A stretch of 64,000 nt of DNA from Balanoglossus misakiensis. Taxonomy: Eukaryota > Animalia > Hemichordata. The position numbers and the translations under genes were made by a program. The notes under the pieces were generated by a model. The model had not been told where the DNA came from. It did no database searches and worked only from the letters and a program-made list of their open reading frames with translations. This document shows positions 55,712 to 64,000 of the stretch, piece after piece. Location of the stretch: assembly GCA_040954595.2 (NCBI GenBank), contig CM082584.2, forward strand, positions 12,809,166 to 12,873,165, in the 5' to 3' direction. Each line of letters begins with the position of its first letter. Position 1 is the stretch's first letter.

Positions 55712-58684
55712 CCGCTACCACCTTGTTGAGGCAAACAGGCCGTGTAAAATAACCGACATGGCTGGCATATCGCGGTCACTCGTTAGTACAAGCTGCTCGC
55801 CATTCGACACCTAGCCTGAGTGCGAGGGCTGCTCTCTCTCTCGCTCTTCAGGCAATTAGTATTCACCACACGCCACCAGAGCCCAGTGCAGAAAGCTTCG
55901 AGTGATCAGGCACAGGACGTCATATACACACGACTGATAAACTACCCGGTAAATTAAAGCTTCGGGGTCGGAGTTGCGCGAGACACAGGCAAAGGGAAAC
56001 TTACAAAAGCATTCATCAAGCCCGCTTCTCATTGACCCTGTCAGACGGTTTCTATGGCAACAATAATCTGTCTCCCAAAGTGGGCAGGCCGAAAACAATA
56101 TTGCTGAACCAATATGGGCGCGTGCTCTAGCTCGCGTTCATAAATATATAATTCCATTACGTCATGGTTTAAAAAAAATAATATTCGCCAACTGTTCAAT
56201 GATGTTAATTGTTGTCATACAGACTGTTTCAATGTGCGACAAAAATAAATTTAGTTTTCCCTGGTGTTTGTTTTAAGTGTCGGGCTTTGCTCTTCTTGTA
56301 TGCCTGCGTATGCCTGTGTGTGTGCACGCGCGCGCACTCATGCACGCACGCATACATACACGATGGTCAATTTATATTTAAATCTATACATTGCCTTAGA
56401 CATAATTAATTAATATCGTTGATTGCTCATCATACCGCGCTGAATATTCATAAAACTGTGACAAATATTCATAGGCGAATATTTTGTCAGACTAACCGTC
56501 ATTTAGATTCGTTCCCTTCATCCATTTCCACGGTGACTTTTTCCGGGTGCGCTCTTCATGCAGTTCTACAAAGGACGAGACATTCAAATGAAGTGGTCAA
56601 ATTTGAATGCAAAAACGACACCAACAACGTGCTATACAAAAAGGTAGCAAAATATAGTTTCACATAGGGGAACATGATAAAGACAGCAAAGAAAAGAAAA
56701 CCCAACTCTCTAGGGCACCATGAGATTGATAATTAACCCCATCCATTAATTAGAAGAATACCTGTTCTGGTTTGAGTGGAATTGCCTCGTGGAGTCTCCG
56801 ACAAGGCTGATGTAGTTAGTGACCCGTGTCTGTTTAACCCCATGACAATTTGAATTGTACACTTTATGCATATGCTAATGTATTTGCATGATCATACAAT
56901 AACACCTGGTAATGGCACATCCTGGTGTCTTGTGTGTGCGCATGCTCTGAACACTACATCTACATGTACTAGTATATTGTGTTTTAGCCTGTCGAAAAGC
57001 GAGTATTGGGCATTAGGTTGAGTGTATCGAAAAAATAAACGAAATTAAAAAAATAACTTGTGTCTATCTCTGCCTAGTCGTTGATATTATTCGTGTTGCA
57101 TTAGCCCCTCCCCACGTTTTCTAGAAGTGCTTTCAAGGTAGTTTTTCTCGTCAAATTAATTCTACCTGCGTACAAAATAACAAAGGAGGCGATCGATTAT
57201 CCCCTCTAGCGCGAAATTGCCGAAGCAAAAACTCTACGTTTTATTGACTTAAAAATTATCTGTGATCTGGTGACTGCTACTGCTTCATTCTGGTCACCAT
57301 GGGAGAGCGCGGGAAAAGGTTAAGCACACAGAAGGCGATCGTTAGCGCCTTTTGTATCCTTCATACTTTGGATCGATTGTGACGTTTTAGCTGGGACCAA
57401 GGAAGTGGAAAGCAGAGTTTGAAAATTGTGTCATGACATTCCCCGACTGTGTTCAGAATTGTCCATTCATCAGTTGTATTCACCGGTTATTGGTTGCATG
57501 GAGGGAAGAGTTTATTTGACAGTTACACAAAGAGAAGGGGGCGTAGCCGCCTTATCTTCTCGGAACAGATAATCGTTTTCCCCTCCAACGATCATTCAGC
57601 TGTCGTATATGGCGCCATCTTCAGAAGCTGAAATCTGTGATGTAATCCATCAAACCTGTTTACAAACATGATTGTCTGCATGCATTATGTTTATTCAGCA
57701 ACAGAGATCTCACCTCGCATCGCATAGCAAACTTAACGACAAAAAAGTAAAGATAAATACAAGTACTCTTTACCAAGCCATCGAAGAGGGCGCCATGCCG
57801 GCATAGGCCAGGAGAGGGGGGAGAGGGGGAGATCAATTTTTTACAAATAAAGCATTTGGAATTTTTAATTATTTAGAAAACAACCATATATTCATTTAGT
57901 ATTCTTTATATGATACAAAACGTATTATTTACATTTCATTTCAGTAAAGGAAAACCGGAAAGTACATGTACATACACACCGCGGCAATTGTTGTCTGTTT
58001 GTCAGCTGTCTGTTTGGAAAAGTATATTTATAATGTAATTATAATGGTCCTATCACCATCTTCAAAAATCAAAAACTACATTTATGATTATTTTATTCAA
58101 ATAAAAGGAAAACGATGAAAACTAAGATTATGAATTTTGCATCAGTTGTGACAATTTAATATTTCAATTGATAATTACTACCAGATTCATTCACACACAG
58201 GCCGAATGGATTCATATAAGTGCTAACTCTTATAAAGCGAGATCGTTAAGCTCTGAGACTTGAAATGTAGACCAAATATGTTTGCACGTACAAAAAATAT
58301 ACAGGAAATCTATAAACATGATTTTTTTTTTTACAATACGAGTGAAAGGCAAGCAATTGTTCAAGCACATTACCTTGAGGATATTTACAAATAAGACTAT
58401 ATACAAGTAAAGCTATTTATTGTAAATCATCTCAGTTGCAGAAGATGTATAAACAACTTCCTGGAATTCATATATAATGATAAAGTACAGAACTTTTGTG
58501 GTAACCATGCAAGTGACACTGTGTGTAGTGTCGGCCATCTAGACGAACATGATACTGAAGTGTTGGTCGATATGTCTGCAATACTTCTTGACAAGAAAAA
58601 CACAATTGTGATCATCCAAAATGTCTATAGTACGCAAGCAACTTGTAAATGTCTGTCTGCGCGCGCACACGCGTGTTATCACAA

Positions 58685-61600
58685 CTACTCCATCTCGGCT
58701 GTGGAAGAGACACCACCGCGATGCGCGTCGGGCATATCAGTGACGCTGCTGTCACCATCCGGGTTCGCTTGCTGAGTGTTGTATGAGTCAGACCTGTCTG
58801 TCCGTCGCTTGAAGAATGAATTTTGAATTCTGCCCACAAGCAGAACGATGAGACTTTTGATAAAAACGCACAGCTCACATATTGTTATGACTGACACCCC
58901 AATATAGAGTCCGAGAAGACCTCCCATGTCGCTCATTAGATCATCGTCCTGAGGGAGAGATTTAATGAGTGAGTGTGTGAGTGTGTGTGATGTGGTTTTA
59001 TGAAAGTATGTAATCGAGGGTTCGCTGCTGCATTTCCCCTTCCGAACGCTGACCGAAGATTCATGCGCTCTCTGACGCGGCTGCGCATGGTACAATTATC
59101 CCTGGCCATTTCCTTGACAATGTTCCAACTGATTCTGGGAAGTTGGAATGAAGGGAGATTTGAAACATTTTTTGCCTGTTAAAAAAATGCTAATTTAGGC
59201 ACTTACCGTATATGCCACATTTTCTCTGATATACTGGACACTTAAACTGTCAAAATACACTTCTATGTAAGCAAGGTTCTTTCTGAAATAACAAAATAAG
59301 CATGTTACTCATCGACAATGAGTTGCCTGGGTAACCTCATCCACACAGAGCAGTTTCCTTTAATCCCATTTAAGTCTTTTGGTGCAATATGCCATGGATT
59401 ACATTTAACACAACTCCTACTTTATTTGGGTGTTATTCGATATACAAGGCCTAAGATAAACTGTGTACTTACTGTGCCGACTCAGCATCAGATAATATTT
59501 TTGTCTTCGGGTTTATGGCATATATGCTTTTTAGAAGTTGTCTCTGTTGGAATTTGAATCAGAAGATTTGAAGATGAAATTCACGATGGAAAAAAACATG
59601 TCATGATGTTTAGAGTCATAACATTGTTTGCGTGACCAACGATATACGAATGCGAGACCTCAAACCACAAACAAACACGCAAACACGTTTGTGTGGGCAT
59701 TACACCACTGATTAAAATGAAGGTACGGAATGAAAAGAGAGAAATCTTACCAAGTAACTCTCCGAAGGCCACGATGCCAAGGATGTTGTTTTACTGAAAC
59801 CATCCTCCCTGTGAACAAAGAAGTGTATTTTCTGTTAATTTCTGAAACATGTTCCCTTGTCTCATTACAACACACTTTATCTACATAGCCTCCCCCAAAT
59901 TGATGTCGTTGAAAAAGATTACCCATGTCCATACCCTTTCTTTGCAATTAATGGAAACAGTACAAATTGACTTCGTGCTGACCATGTCACGTTAACTTAG
60001 CAAGTACAGCAGACACTTGTTCCCTTGTAAAATTAAATAAAAAAACTTACTCGCAAGGTGGATAACAATCACATGGAAGAACTTGGTTTTGTTGAAAATA
60101 GTGTATCAGCTGACGACATGCCTCTGTGAAAGTAAATGTTTTGGATTTGAGAGAATTGCTATTTATGGTGCTGAAATCGTTTAGTAGTCATGAAAAATTA
60201 TGGTTTTTAGCTCGTTATTGCTCAAGTTGAATTTCAATGAACTCAAATGAAACCCAAGAGAACCACATTAGGAACCTAATTGTGTGGAGTACCTACCTTG
60301 GCGTTTGTCGAGTATTTTACAATTTCCACCGCCATAAAATGGGACGTCCATACACCCGCAGTATTCTTGCATCCGTTCTTGCAAACACATATGTTTACAG
60401 GCCTTTAAAGAAATACACAGAAAACAAAAATGTCACGACTTTAATATTGACAGAATTTTGAAATAAATAACACATGGATTTCAACGATTGAATCAACAGA
60501 GATATAACATACACTGCGTGTACCGGTATATGCACATGAATGTTAAGGGCAACTGTGGTCGTGAATGTCACAGTGAATTTCCTCTCTATTCTTTTCCATG
60601 CGAATTTCTCTGCTCCTTTTGTACATAACTCACGTGACGCCTTGATATTTACACCTACCAGTGTTGAGTATCTGAAATGCAGACCTTCAAAGATGGGATC
60701 ATTTGTTTTCGTACAGCGACCATATGGTGGCCCCTTTCGCTCGTATGTGTTCTGTAAAGAGAAGAGTAATCACACTGTTTGATTCATTTGTCACTTCCCA
60801 CCCACGTTGTGATACAAAACCATCTGACTCAGTGAACAAACACCATCCTGGTGTCAAACTGCAGGTAGACACATCACTTTATGAATGTAGTGTCCTTTTG
60901 AAAAGCATCATTCCAAGCCAAGGCGACTCACAAGTGGAATGTTTCGGAAGTGAGACCTCTATGGACCGGGCAAGCTTTATTCCAAGAGAGGGCGCACCAT
61001 GGTATGGCATCTATTTTCACCCAGGCTACTAATACACGGCACACACACTTACCTGCCTAATGGCAAATGACGTAGCGGCACCCGTCTTTGCAGTCAGTCC
61101 ATTATCTGCTGGCATGGGCATGTGTTGTGGGTTGTGTATGCTGACACGTACACCTGACTCCTGGCCGTAAATTCCTAAATATTCGTGCTGCTCGGTGAAC
61201 AGGGTTAGTTTCAACCCTACAAGTAGAAGAAACAAAATATCTCAGCGATTTAAAGGAAATACTTTGTATCTACTATCTACAGAGATGTCGCAGTTTTGTC
61301 ATAATTGCCGAGGTTACTCTGGTGAAATGTGTTTTGATTTTATTCACTTGTGATCTTATACTGACTGTCACAGTGGGACCACAGTGACTGGATGGAATAG
61401 GTAACAGATGACTTACCGTATTGCGCTCCAGACTTGGTAGCATTTCTGATTACATCACCGTCGGTGCCATGGTTGAAAGTATAGCAATTGCCGTACACTT
61501 TGTCTTGGAAAGGTTTGAAATGGCTGGAGACAAAAGCAAAAGATGGGGGATTGAGCTGTCAGAGATGTCTATAATAAATGTGTGCTCATTATAAAAAAAA

Positions 61601-64000
61601 AACCACCTTGGTTAGGAAAAACAGCTAACATTAAGGGATGACTTGAGCGGGTACCTGTGATCACATGGACGTTCATTGTAACTGCACTGCAGAATAAAAT
61701 CCTCAGCTTGGTGTCCGTACTCCTGTATTTCCTCAGCGCTGAGTTGTAACACGTGCTTCAGGTCGCTGAAATCAGGGGTGGAACTGAATGTGATGAAACC
61801 ATTCCAGTCGGGCGGGTCCTCTCTCCGGACCCGGTCGAATCCTGGGTCTTTGTAATAATACTTCATGAAGTTCTCAAACAGCTCCTGATTGTCCGTGATG
61901 GCCGAGAATTTTTGCCACCATCCTTCTTCAAACACTTCGTCATTATTGCCAAAATCTGAATCATAGAAAAACGACAAAATATTATTTCACAGTCTTATGC
62001 TCTAAAACTTTGTCACAAATGTGACTTAGGATTAGGTATAGGCCATAACAAATTGTTGTCATTGTTATAAAAATAAATGAGAACTTGGATTTACCCTGAT
62101 ATATGCAGTTTGGCCATTTTTCGTCTTCAGAGTTGGGACATTCACCAACGATATCACACACCAGAATATCATCGATGCACATTTCATCGTTGCACTTGAA
62201 AAATCCTCGCGGACAGTTTCCAGTGTCGTCTGGTACAACTGGATTATAATGAAAGTGCAGGTTATTAGAAATGGGAGAGAGAGAGGGAGAGACAGACAGA
62301 CAGATTGATAATGAATGATGGAACAGCAGAAAAATGTCTGTGCCAGAAAAGTAAACGGCAAACATAAACTATGGGCAGATGGAACGCTGAAGGAGAAAAC
62401 GTCACACGACGAAATCACTTACCATTTTCACCCTCGCAAATCCTACAACTCAGAGGGCAGTATTTCTTCATGTAAGCTGGATTCTGCGCACACTCTCCAT
62501 TTTCAGCCCAAAACTCACAGTTGACGTTGCTGTCCGAGCATACTGTACAGAAACAACCCGTTAATATTTTGATGGAAATTTCCTTTGTAATGGAAGTCCC
62601 AAGTGATATCATATATAACATTCTTGATGTAAACAACTATACTTACATAGACTGGTACAGTTCTGTAATTCATCACTACCATCTGGACAATCGTTGTAAT
62701 TGTTGCAAACTTTCCAGGATTTGATACATTTGCCGTTGGTGCATTTAAATTCGTCTCGTCCACATAAAGCTGGAAGGTGGGAAAACAGTTATTAGATTTC
62801 AGGAAGTCATGTGGGGCGTGACTGTTGAAAAATGACTTGTCCTGGTAGTAGTTTACTGCCAAAATGGCGGACGTTATCATTGACCAACGGGAAATGACGT
62901 CACAAATAGACTCACCGTATTCACAATCCCTTTCGTCACTTCCGTCACCACAGTCATCAATCCAGTCACAAAGCTTTTCAATCTGTACACATTTCCTATT
63001 TTCACACGTAAATTCCCATTCTTGGCACAACCCTGCGAATGTAATTCAAAGCAACATTTCGGCAATTAGGCAGTTGGTGAATTTGAGCACAGAGACTACA
63101 GAAGATGAGAACGCATACTCACTATATTTACAGCCTTCTTCATCAGATCCGTCACGGCAGTCGATTTTGTAGTTACACTTATCCGTATAAGGATGACAGA
63201 AATTCACATCGCAGAAGAACCCATCGCATTCACGGCCAGGTATATCTGTGGATGTCAAGAAAGACGCATTTTACAAGAACATTTTGAATATCACATAGTT
63301 TACAATCACAATTCAGCTACGAAGCATGGCAATTGTATTTTCTTTGGTGGGGTCTCATCATCGTAGTCATCATCACCACCAGCACCACAAACAACAACAC
63401 AATGAAAACCTTACTGCAGTTCTTTTCATCCTCGCTCTCATTGCAGTCTTCAATGCCATCACACTTTCTCTCACCCGGAATGCAAACCCCGGACAATCCG
63501 CCTTTGGAACATTTGAACTGGTCTGCACCGCACACATAACTGGCTGTAAATGGTTGAATGTGGAAGAAATTTCGAAGTTTAATGACTGTATCATTTCATA
63601 GTATGAAGACACTAATACAGCTAGAACATATAACTACGGCCGGGCGTCATTCAGGAATACTCACTGAAGTCGCAGCCGAACTCATCGCTTCCATCCGGAC
63701 AGTTTCTCATTCCGTCGCAAACCAGATAAGCTTTGACGCAGTGAATGCCATCATTACAAAGACTGTCCCCAGGAAGACATGGCACTGAAAGGAAAATAAA
63801 CGGTAGTGGTAAGATTTATCACCAACCTTGGAAATAATTTCGCATGATTTTCGATGCTTTTTTGCTCCGAGAACTGGTACTCACCATAGTAGGCTTGGAC
63901 CTTGATGTTCAACATCATATTGACGAATGCATAGTGGTTGCTGTCTAATAACGCTGATGCTCGTACTTTATTGGTGTTGCATATCGTCACAGCCGGGAAC
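58685..64000 (-). CDS. DEG/ENaC (amiloride-sensitive sodium channel family) subunit with six LDLa repeats and one ShKT domain in the ectodomain; 5'-partial (N-terminus and TM1 beyond the window)
   Basis: 18 in-frame GT-AG exons: 64000-63885 ([10 protein letters not shown]), 63784-63665, 63543-63415, 63245-63123, 63032-62916, 62769-62647 (five LDLa), 62542-62423 (ShKT), 62238-62095 (LDLa), 61955-61655 ([13 protein letters not shown]), 61523-61417 (YGNCYTFN), 61216-61053 (GLKLTL..EQHEY..GVRVSIH), 60751-60659, 60402-60297, 60123-60051 (Cys-rich thumb, CDCYPPCE), 59808-59751 (WPS), 59543-59473, 59282-59207, 58948-58685 (TM2 [22 protein letters not shown]...STAEME*). About 767 aa lie within the window. 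Confidence 0.95.

Follow-up and report, generated by a model that had tools for sequence, protein, structure and literature searches.

Known stimuli that open channels of the DEG/ENaC family are protons, peptides, proteolysis and mechanical force. To our knowledge, no member has been shown to be opened by the binding of a folded endogenous protein, and we know of no channel in which the tether of the mechanical tether model belongs to the subunit itself. In other systems, LDLa modules regulate membrane proteins that signal or determine where they sit, as in the GPCRs RXFP1/2 and snail GRL101 and in NETO and LEV-10, the last two being LDLa/CUB auxiliary subunits that position other channels; modules of this type are often used for localisation or adhesion, not gating. 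According to the main text of PMC6197857, the GRIP domain of ENaC lies between finger helices α1 and α2, and residue W251 contacts the inhibitory P1 strand. The ligand of FaNaC is described as binding distally (main text of PMC11750451), a matrix tether model has been proposed for MEC-4 (main text of PMC10148893), and the main text of PMC9478639 presents the EGAS channels of C. elegans as putative mechanoreceptors in IL2 neurons.

We analysed a 64,000-nucleotide stretch of Balanoglossus misakiensis DNA (the window), whose minus strand carries, from 63999 to 58685, a channel gene of 18 exons with GT..AG introns throughout, whose open frame runs unbroken for 767 residues up to the stop (all exon coordinates below refer to this strand). 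The readable portion of the gene begins at the window edge, one base ahead of the FPAVTICN motif, with TM1 and the N-terminus beyond it. The first exon (63885-64000, 5' end off the window; Pfam ASC 22.7 bits) encodes FPAVTICN and finger helix α1, assigned from the helix order of an orthologue model. It is followed by a cassette of seven exons (63784-62095, 876 nt, 292 residues), measuring in order 120, 129, 123, 117, 123, 120 and 144 nt. All seven lengths are divisible by three, which chance would produce about once in 2,000 cases ((1/3)^7), and all seven exons are phase 1-1. The introns bordering the cassette, 100 and 139 nt long, leave no room for the start or end of a separate gene. A finger exon (61655-61955) contains an RVRR site (61833-61822), the Trp of a PPDW motif (61806-61804) with which an α2-like helix begins, and the GHQ motif (61716-61708), the last separated from the cassette by about 80 finger residues. 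Palm, β-ball, thumb and knuckle are assigned to eight exons within 59207-61523 (61523-61417, 61216-61053, 60751-60659, 60402-60297, 60123-60051, 59808-59751, 59543-59473 and 59282-59207). The last exon (58685-58948) encodes TM2, a G-V-S motif (58900-58892) that matches the G-x-S filter of DEG/ENaC channels, the cytosolic tail and the stop; the first AATAAA past the stop is at 58421. The core motifs are intact in the encoded protein, including the thumb cysteines and TM2 with its filter. We confirm, with predicted junctions, that a cassette of five LDLa repeats, a ShKT domain and a further LDLa repeat is inserted in frame in the finger of an intact DEG/ENaC reading frame, as a preliminary description of this locus had reported.

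By per-exon Pfam scans, Ldl_recept_a scored 26.0-52.2 bits in five of the six LDLa exons (cut-off, 24.1 bits): repeat 1 (63665-63784), repeat 2 (63415-63543), repeat 4 (62916-63032), repeat 5 (62647-62769) and repeat 6 (62095-62238, the seventh cassette exon). Repeat 3 (63123-63245) fell slightly below the cut-off, at 23.6 bits (E 6e-5), yet it has the six cysteines and terminal DE motif found in all six repeats. An all-Asp Ca2+ cage occurs only in repeats 2 and 4, where the acidic set is complete; together with the cysteines and terminal DE motif of every repeat, these two cages make Ca2+-dependent folding of the LDLa modules likely. The sixth cassette exon (62423-62542) encodes a ShKT domain, judged by Pfam (ShK 45.6 bits against a cut-off of 20.9, E 1e-11), by the six-Cys ShK pattern and by PDB matches to 2mcr (E 3.5e-7) and MMP-23 (2k72, E 0.0012). 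Regulation of a neighbouring K+ channel by the ShKT module, conceivable by analogy with MMP-23, was set aside. ASC (PF00858) was matched by five of the eight flanking exons scanned, with no match in the other three, and at 186-282 bits in orthologues. The HG motif and TM1 are found in all six aligned relatives, in a segment that lies beyond the window for this gene; just after TM1, these relatives have no counterpart of the ASIC wrist histidine, given as H73 in the main text of PMC10507113. No YWTD propeller was matched by Pfam in the orthologues, and no NPxY motif occurs in the tail encoded in the window. A constitutively open, degenerin-type channel was set aside; what we take to be the degenerin position holds a small Ser in the relatives.

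Below 58600, tblastn with 68 relatives (507 matches) detected no second channel gene. An open frame of ~146 residues (46484-46044, minus strand), 12 kb downstream of the channel gene, has no Pfam or PDB match. Its product would begin with a sequence resembling a signal peptide, continue through a Pro/Gly linker into an eight-Cys region and end in a hydrophobic tail, the layout of a small GPI-anchored protein. A multi-exon gene similar to CACHD1 (VWFA and cache domain protein 1) occupies ~37200-20400 on the minus strand, its extent judged from open frames, and its exon at 25077-24577 matches PDB 8s7c (E 2e-24).

Searching with the exon that follows the cassette returned 36 proteins among 122 candidates. 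Of the 36, 24 combine LDLa with ASC, and hemichordate records (Ptychodera, Saccoglossus, Glandiceps) account for 25. The closest relatives are P0001 (83% over 659 columns), P0006 from Ptychodera (91% in the core) and P0003 from Glandiceps (70%). The set was enlarged by further searches (18 hits among 3,350 candidates and 32 among 683) and by the best 150 of 5,105 hits of a HMMER scan, giving 209 proteins with isoforms and near-copies included. A phylogeny of the channel core, as the preliminary description had proposed, was built as trees of 163 rows (FastTree; 170 of the 208 sequences covered the core sufficiently, and near-copies among them were removed), 60 rows and 32 rows with bootstrap; none contains a named vertebrate sequence. 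The gene in the window is subunit A of three paralogues: A comprises this gene, P0006, P0003 and P0002; B comprises P0007 and P0038; C comprises P0005 and P0208. Support for A, B and C in the 32-row bootstrap tree is 100/99, 99/99 and 100/100, each starred, and that for A+B+C as a single clade is 85/99, not starred. Each paralogue has one Saccoglossus and one Ptychodera gene, and among the Glandiceps matches only A was found, B and C not being among the hits. Within each species the A, B and C records lie on contigs of equal size, and the B and C accessions are consecutive, which suggests that the three genes are clustered.

Across three acorn-worm genera, all six full relatives keep the order of five LDLa repeats, ShKT and LDLa, with the fifth repeat part-duplicated in P0003. 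Mean identity between these six and the gene in the window is 79% in repeat 1, 56-64% in the other modules and 42-78% in the core exons, the cassette modules (56-79%) thus being about as conserved as the core. Public databases contain only incomplete models of subunit A: P0002 and P0006 begin inside or just ahead of the cassette, P0006 without repeat 1, and the P0001 model is without TM2. An artefactual chimera, with cassette exons that are part of a different gene or are never spliced in, would be in keeping with the splitting of some public models, the symmetry of all cassette exons and the 476-codon frame that stays open when the flanks are joined without them. We consider it highly improbable and rank it last among the readings weighed here, given the short bordering introns, the same continuous order in every full relative, the recurrence of LDLa at this slot described next, and the confident fold predicted for a continuous orthologue. 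The assignment of these exons to the channel gene in the preliminary description stands.

That description had also proposed a check of the architecture across animals. Both flanking motifs are present in 119 of the 209 proteins, and an LDLa motif lies between them in 55 of the 119. The first module cysteine falls 36-50 residues past FPAVT in 52 of 56 LDLa-bearing sequences (the window model included), in which the insert spans 209-1,314 residues to the GNC motif. The median span in 55 module-free relatives is 165; many of these are close relatives, including sea urchin and one Ptychodera gene, so the channel core does not need the cassette. Pfam scans covering part of the set (11, 14, 48 and 10 proteins) found LDLa with CUB, TSP1, kringle, PAN or F5/8 in hemichordate relatives, and LDLa with SRCR in two starfish and with HYR in one brittle star; in a crinoid, two acoels and snails of three genera, LDLa has no partner module. 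Lancelet relatives have kringle, F5/8 and Link without LDLa. The gene in the window is therefore a member of a large invertebrate family with exchangeable finger cassettes, as well as one of three conserved paralogues.

Several members of the wider set have unusual inserts. The snail proteins P0134, P0161 and P0199 have two LDLa repeats at the slot and, after them, basic sites and a region rich in Ser and Thr. Snail and deuterostome inserts branch apart in the trees, and a single origin was set aside; the snail insert is possibly an independent gain, although deep support between the two branches is weak (59/88) and gain and loss are indistinguishable there. The lancelet-type proteins P0042-P0044, P0091 and P0097 have finger inserts of 800-1,150 residues with Link, F5/8 and kringle and no LDLa. 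P0037 and P0112 contain two channel units per chain and may be fused tandem genes.

RefSeq already holds the architecture as automated models, labelled 'uncharacterized', 'degenerin-like' or 'LRP2-like', as the preliminary description had anticipated. In agreement with that description, the literature searched, largely open-access main texts, yielded no account, functional or otherwise, of LDLa or any other module within the DEG/ENaC finger. The term 'LDL' is absent from the main texts of PMC9822975, PMC10507113, PMC10148893, PMC6827283, PMC8791634 and PMC11750451, and from those of PMC9949801 and PMC9234716, two DEG/ENaC phylogenies that sample Ptychodera (the former with variable termini trimmed) and whose main texts mention no LDL modules. 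A passing mention of the architecture in earlier literature is possible.

To place the cassette in the channel fold, we used an AlphaFold model of P0007 (paralogue B; residues 491-1285, 70-sequence alignment) as a stand-in for the window protein; the ESM Atlas returned no usable hit for P0007. The model has a pLDDT of 86.8 and a pTM of 0.73, with the ShKT segment below pLDDT 50, and adopts the hand-shaped DEG/ENaC fold, matching FaNaC, ENaC and ASIC structures at Z 33.6-29. Aplysia FaNaC is the top match (Z 33.6, rmsd 4.2, 395 aligned), with ENaC γ at Z 32.4 (rmsd 2.9, 348 aligned) and ASIC1 at Z ~30. Helix 96-104 immediately precedes the repeats, and the remaining finger helices follow them. 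When a family profile was compared with the PDB, ENaC gave the best score (362-355 bits over the whole length; ASIC1, 337). In this alignment, which is gappy around α2, the α1-α2 insert of ENaC is aligned with the LDLa-bearing positions and the PPDW Trp with W251 of α-ENaC. The fold model, the profile alignment and the placement of GRIP and W251 in ENaC together indicate that the cassette likely occupies the GRIP slot between finger helices α1 and α2.

The N-terminal region, outside the window for this gene, is known from gene models of relatives. All six genes with a modelled N-terminus encode EGF-like repeats, a hydrophobic helix, a basic cluster and a cytosolic linker ahead of HG and TM1, and five of the six begin with what resembles a signal peptide and include an FN3-like segment. 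EGF-like motifs number five to eight in five full orthologues or paralogues and three in P0001; on the stalk, Pfam detects FN3 clearly in two records and EGF weakly, at or below the cut-off. The stalk segments are colinear across paralogues and species, which argues against a chance fusion of gene models, and within the relative set an HG motif past residue 200 is otherwise confined to one tandem double-channel model. From the sequences of P0001 and P0003, we infer that the gene in the window also carries an EGF/FN3 stalk and an extra membrane helix. The comparison with the C. elegans EGAS channels drawn in the preliminary description is closer than was proposed, the orthologues having N-terminal EGF repeats as well. 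In paralogue C, one or two extra Cys-rich repeats precede FN3 (P0005 residues ~25-140; N-terminus of P0208 and P0039); they look like hevein/chitin-binding modules and have no Pfam hit.

We tentatively favour, as the first-ranked of five readings and one that still falls short of probable, a heterotrimeric Na+ channel whose gating is controlled by a tethered cap that binds proteins. The three conserved paralogues A, B and C are predicted to form the trimer. The cassette would start right after α1 and end before α2 in the modelled fold, where ENaC has its inhibitory GRIP wedge, and the α2 Trp that cradles this wedge in ENaC appears to be kept. Stiffened by Ca2+, the cassette would act as a cap; an extracellular protein that binds to it, probably one of the matrix or of a cell surface, would shift the finger and so gate the channel. 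The third membrane helix and the FN3/EGF stalk, as seen in orthologues, would anchor the channel to the matrix. One cleavage at RVRR, of the furin type, may ready the cap while leaving it attached. From this arrangement we infer that A, B and C would co-assemble, that the channel would be selective for Na+, which kind of ligand would bind, and that binding or tension would be transmitted to the gate, just as we infer gating by the cap itself. We count against it that EGAS subunits gave no current in oocytes, as stated in the main text of PMC10424705.

Alternatively, the cassette and stalk may only position the channel, by clustering, anchoring or secretory passage; pH or a small ligand would then gate the channel, or it would leak constitutively. 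The variation of the finger inserts fits such a role, as module-free relatives occur within the same wider clade and the kind and number of modules vary freely among subfamilies; the repeats also lack a lysine-docking aromatic. The insertion point, however, is fixed beside the gating helices, and repeat 1 equals the best core exon in conservation (79% versus 78%), which suggests contact with the core. We rank this reading second and consider it possible but unlikely.

The basic site in the finger raises the possibility of protease gating as in ENaC, with the cassette serving as both inhibitory cap and bait, furin cutting at RVRR and a second extracellular protease effecting release. LDLa, CUB, SRCR, kringle, PAN and ShKT, which recur in these inserts, are typical protease accessory modules. 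R-x-x-R stands just before the α2-like helix in 8/8 subfamily records as opposed to 1/25 other alignable relatives, is the sole such site between FPAVT and GHQ in 7/7, and falls in a loop in the P0007 model; basic R-x-K/R-R sites are found in the finger of 64 of the 119 relatives. In ENaC, however, two cuts within one subunit are required to free the tract (main text of PMC8791634), and here no second site lies ahead of the cassette, so a single cut would not free it. The site may instead be structural, since only five of eight sites fit the strict R-x-K/R-R pattern, acidic residues follow, and the loop is well ordered (pLDDT ~90). We place protease gating third and regard it as rather unlikely.

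The preliminary description had included lipoproteins among the candidate ligands, and the cassette might form a cargo site of the LDL-receptor type, with a lipoprotein or RAP-like lysine ligand opening the channel. The six LDLa repeats are genuine, keep their terminal DE motifs and have a negative net charge, and the top PDB matches, as for repeat 4, are repeats of megalin, VLDLR and LDLR. In LDL-family receptors, an aromatic residue two positions before the fourth cysteine docks ligand lysines. Of the megalin repeats compared, the first two have W at this position, the third has Y and a fourth has Q, whereas W, F or Y is found there in none of the six window repeats and in 0/55 repeats of ten subfamily records, against 79/317 repeats in other relatives. 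Without the usual lysine-docking aromatic in any repeat, and with the all-Asp cage confined to two of them, a lipoprotein-type ligand is improbable; the claim is weakened, and we rank it fourth, ahead of the artefactual chimera alone.

Taking the tethered cap as the preferred reading, a broader and more doubtful proposal is that of a bilaterian class of ionotropic protein receptors, in which shuffled cassettes in the GRIP slot of an ENaC-like pore, built from LDLa, CUB, kringle, PAN, SRCR, TSP1, F5/8, Link and ShKT exons, would set the opener. The conserved acorn-worm form, built from three subunits that each cross the membrane with three helices, and equipped with its own EGF tether, would then be a self-contained matrix or force sensor. 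Since each module is a symmetrical exon, the family offers protein-ligand and built-in-tether gating as simple deletion and swap experiments. The GRIP slot is perhaps an old plug-in site for regulatory domains, as the exchange of modules suggests, which bears on the origin of protease gating in vertebrate ENaC.

Among known systems, vertebrate ENaC (SCNN1 α/β/γ) is the best PDB profile match and shares a regulatory insert between α1 and α2, the conserved α2 Trp, a basic finger site and three co-existing paralogues. It differs in that its slot holds the β-strands of GRIP, whereas no GRIP β-strand domain is found here and 292 residues of disulphide-bonded LDLa and ShKT receptor modules fill the slot. 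A single R-x-x-R, downstream of the cassette, replaces the two polybasic sites that bracket the inhibitory tract, the translated tail has no PPxY, and the orthologues add a third membrane helix and an ectodomain. Lancelet ENaC-like proteins form a separate clade according to the main text of PMC8791634. FaNaC and related peptide-gated channels provide the top fold match, close to ENaC γ, but their ligands are small peptides and they lack a modular insert. C. elegans EGAS-1 to -4, proposed mechanoreceptors, resemble the orthologues, by their published description, in fusing EGF repeats to a DEG/ENaC channel; the accounts consulted report no LDLa/ShKT finger cassette in them. MEC-4 and UNC-105 offer Cys-rich finger inserts (38 Cys in nematode P0150) and a proposed matrix tether, although the nematode inserts (P0150, P0196) have no LDLa match, these channels branch apart in the trees, and their tether proteins are separate gene products. 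RXFP1/2, GRL101, NETO and LEV-10 carry or supply LDLa modules on signalling membrane proteins, and the LDLa of RXFP2 is among our PDB hits; in the channel described here, in contrast, the modules reside inside the pore-forming subunit, between what are likely two of its gating helices.
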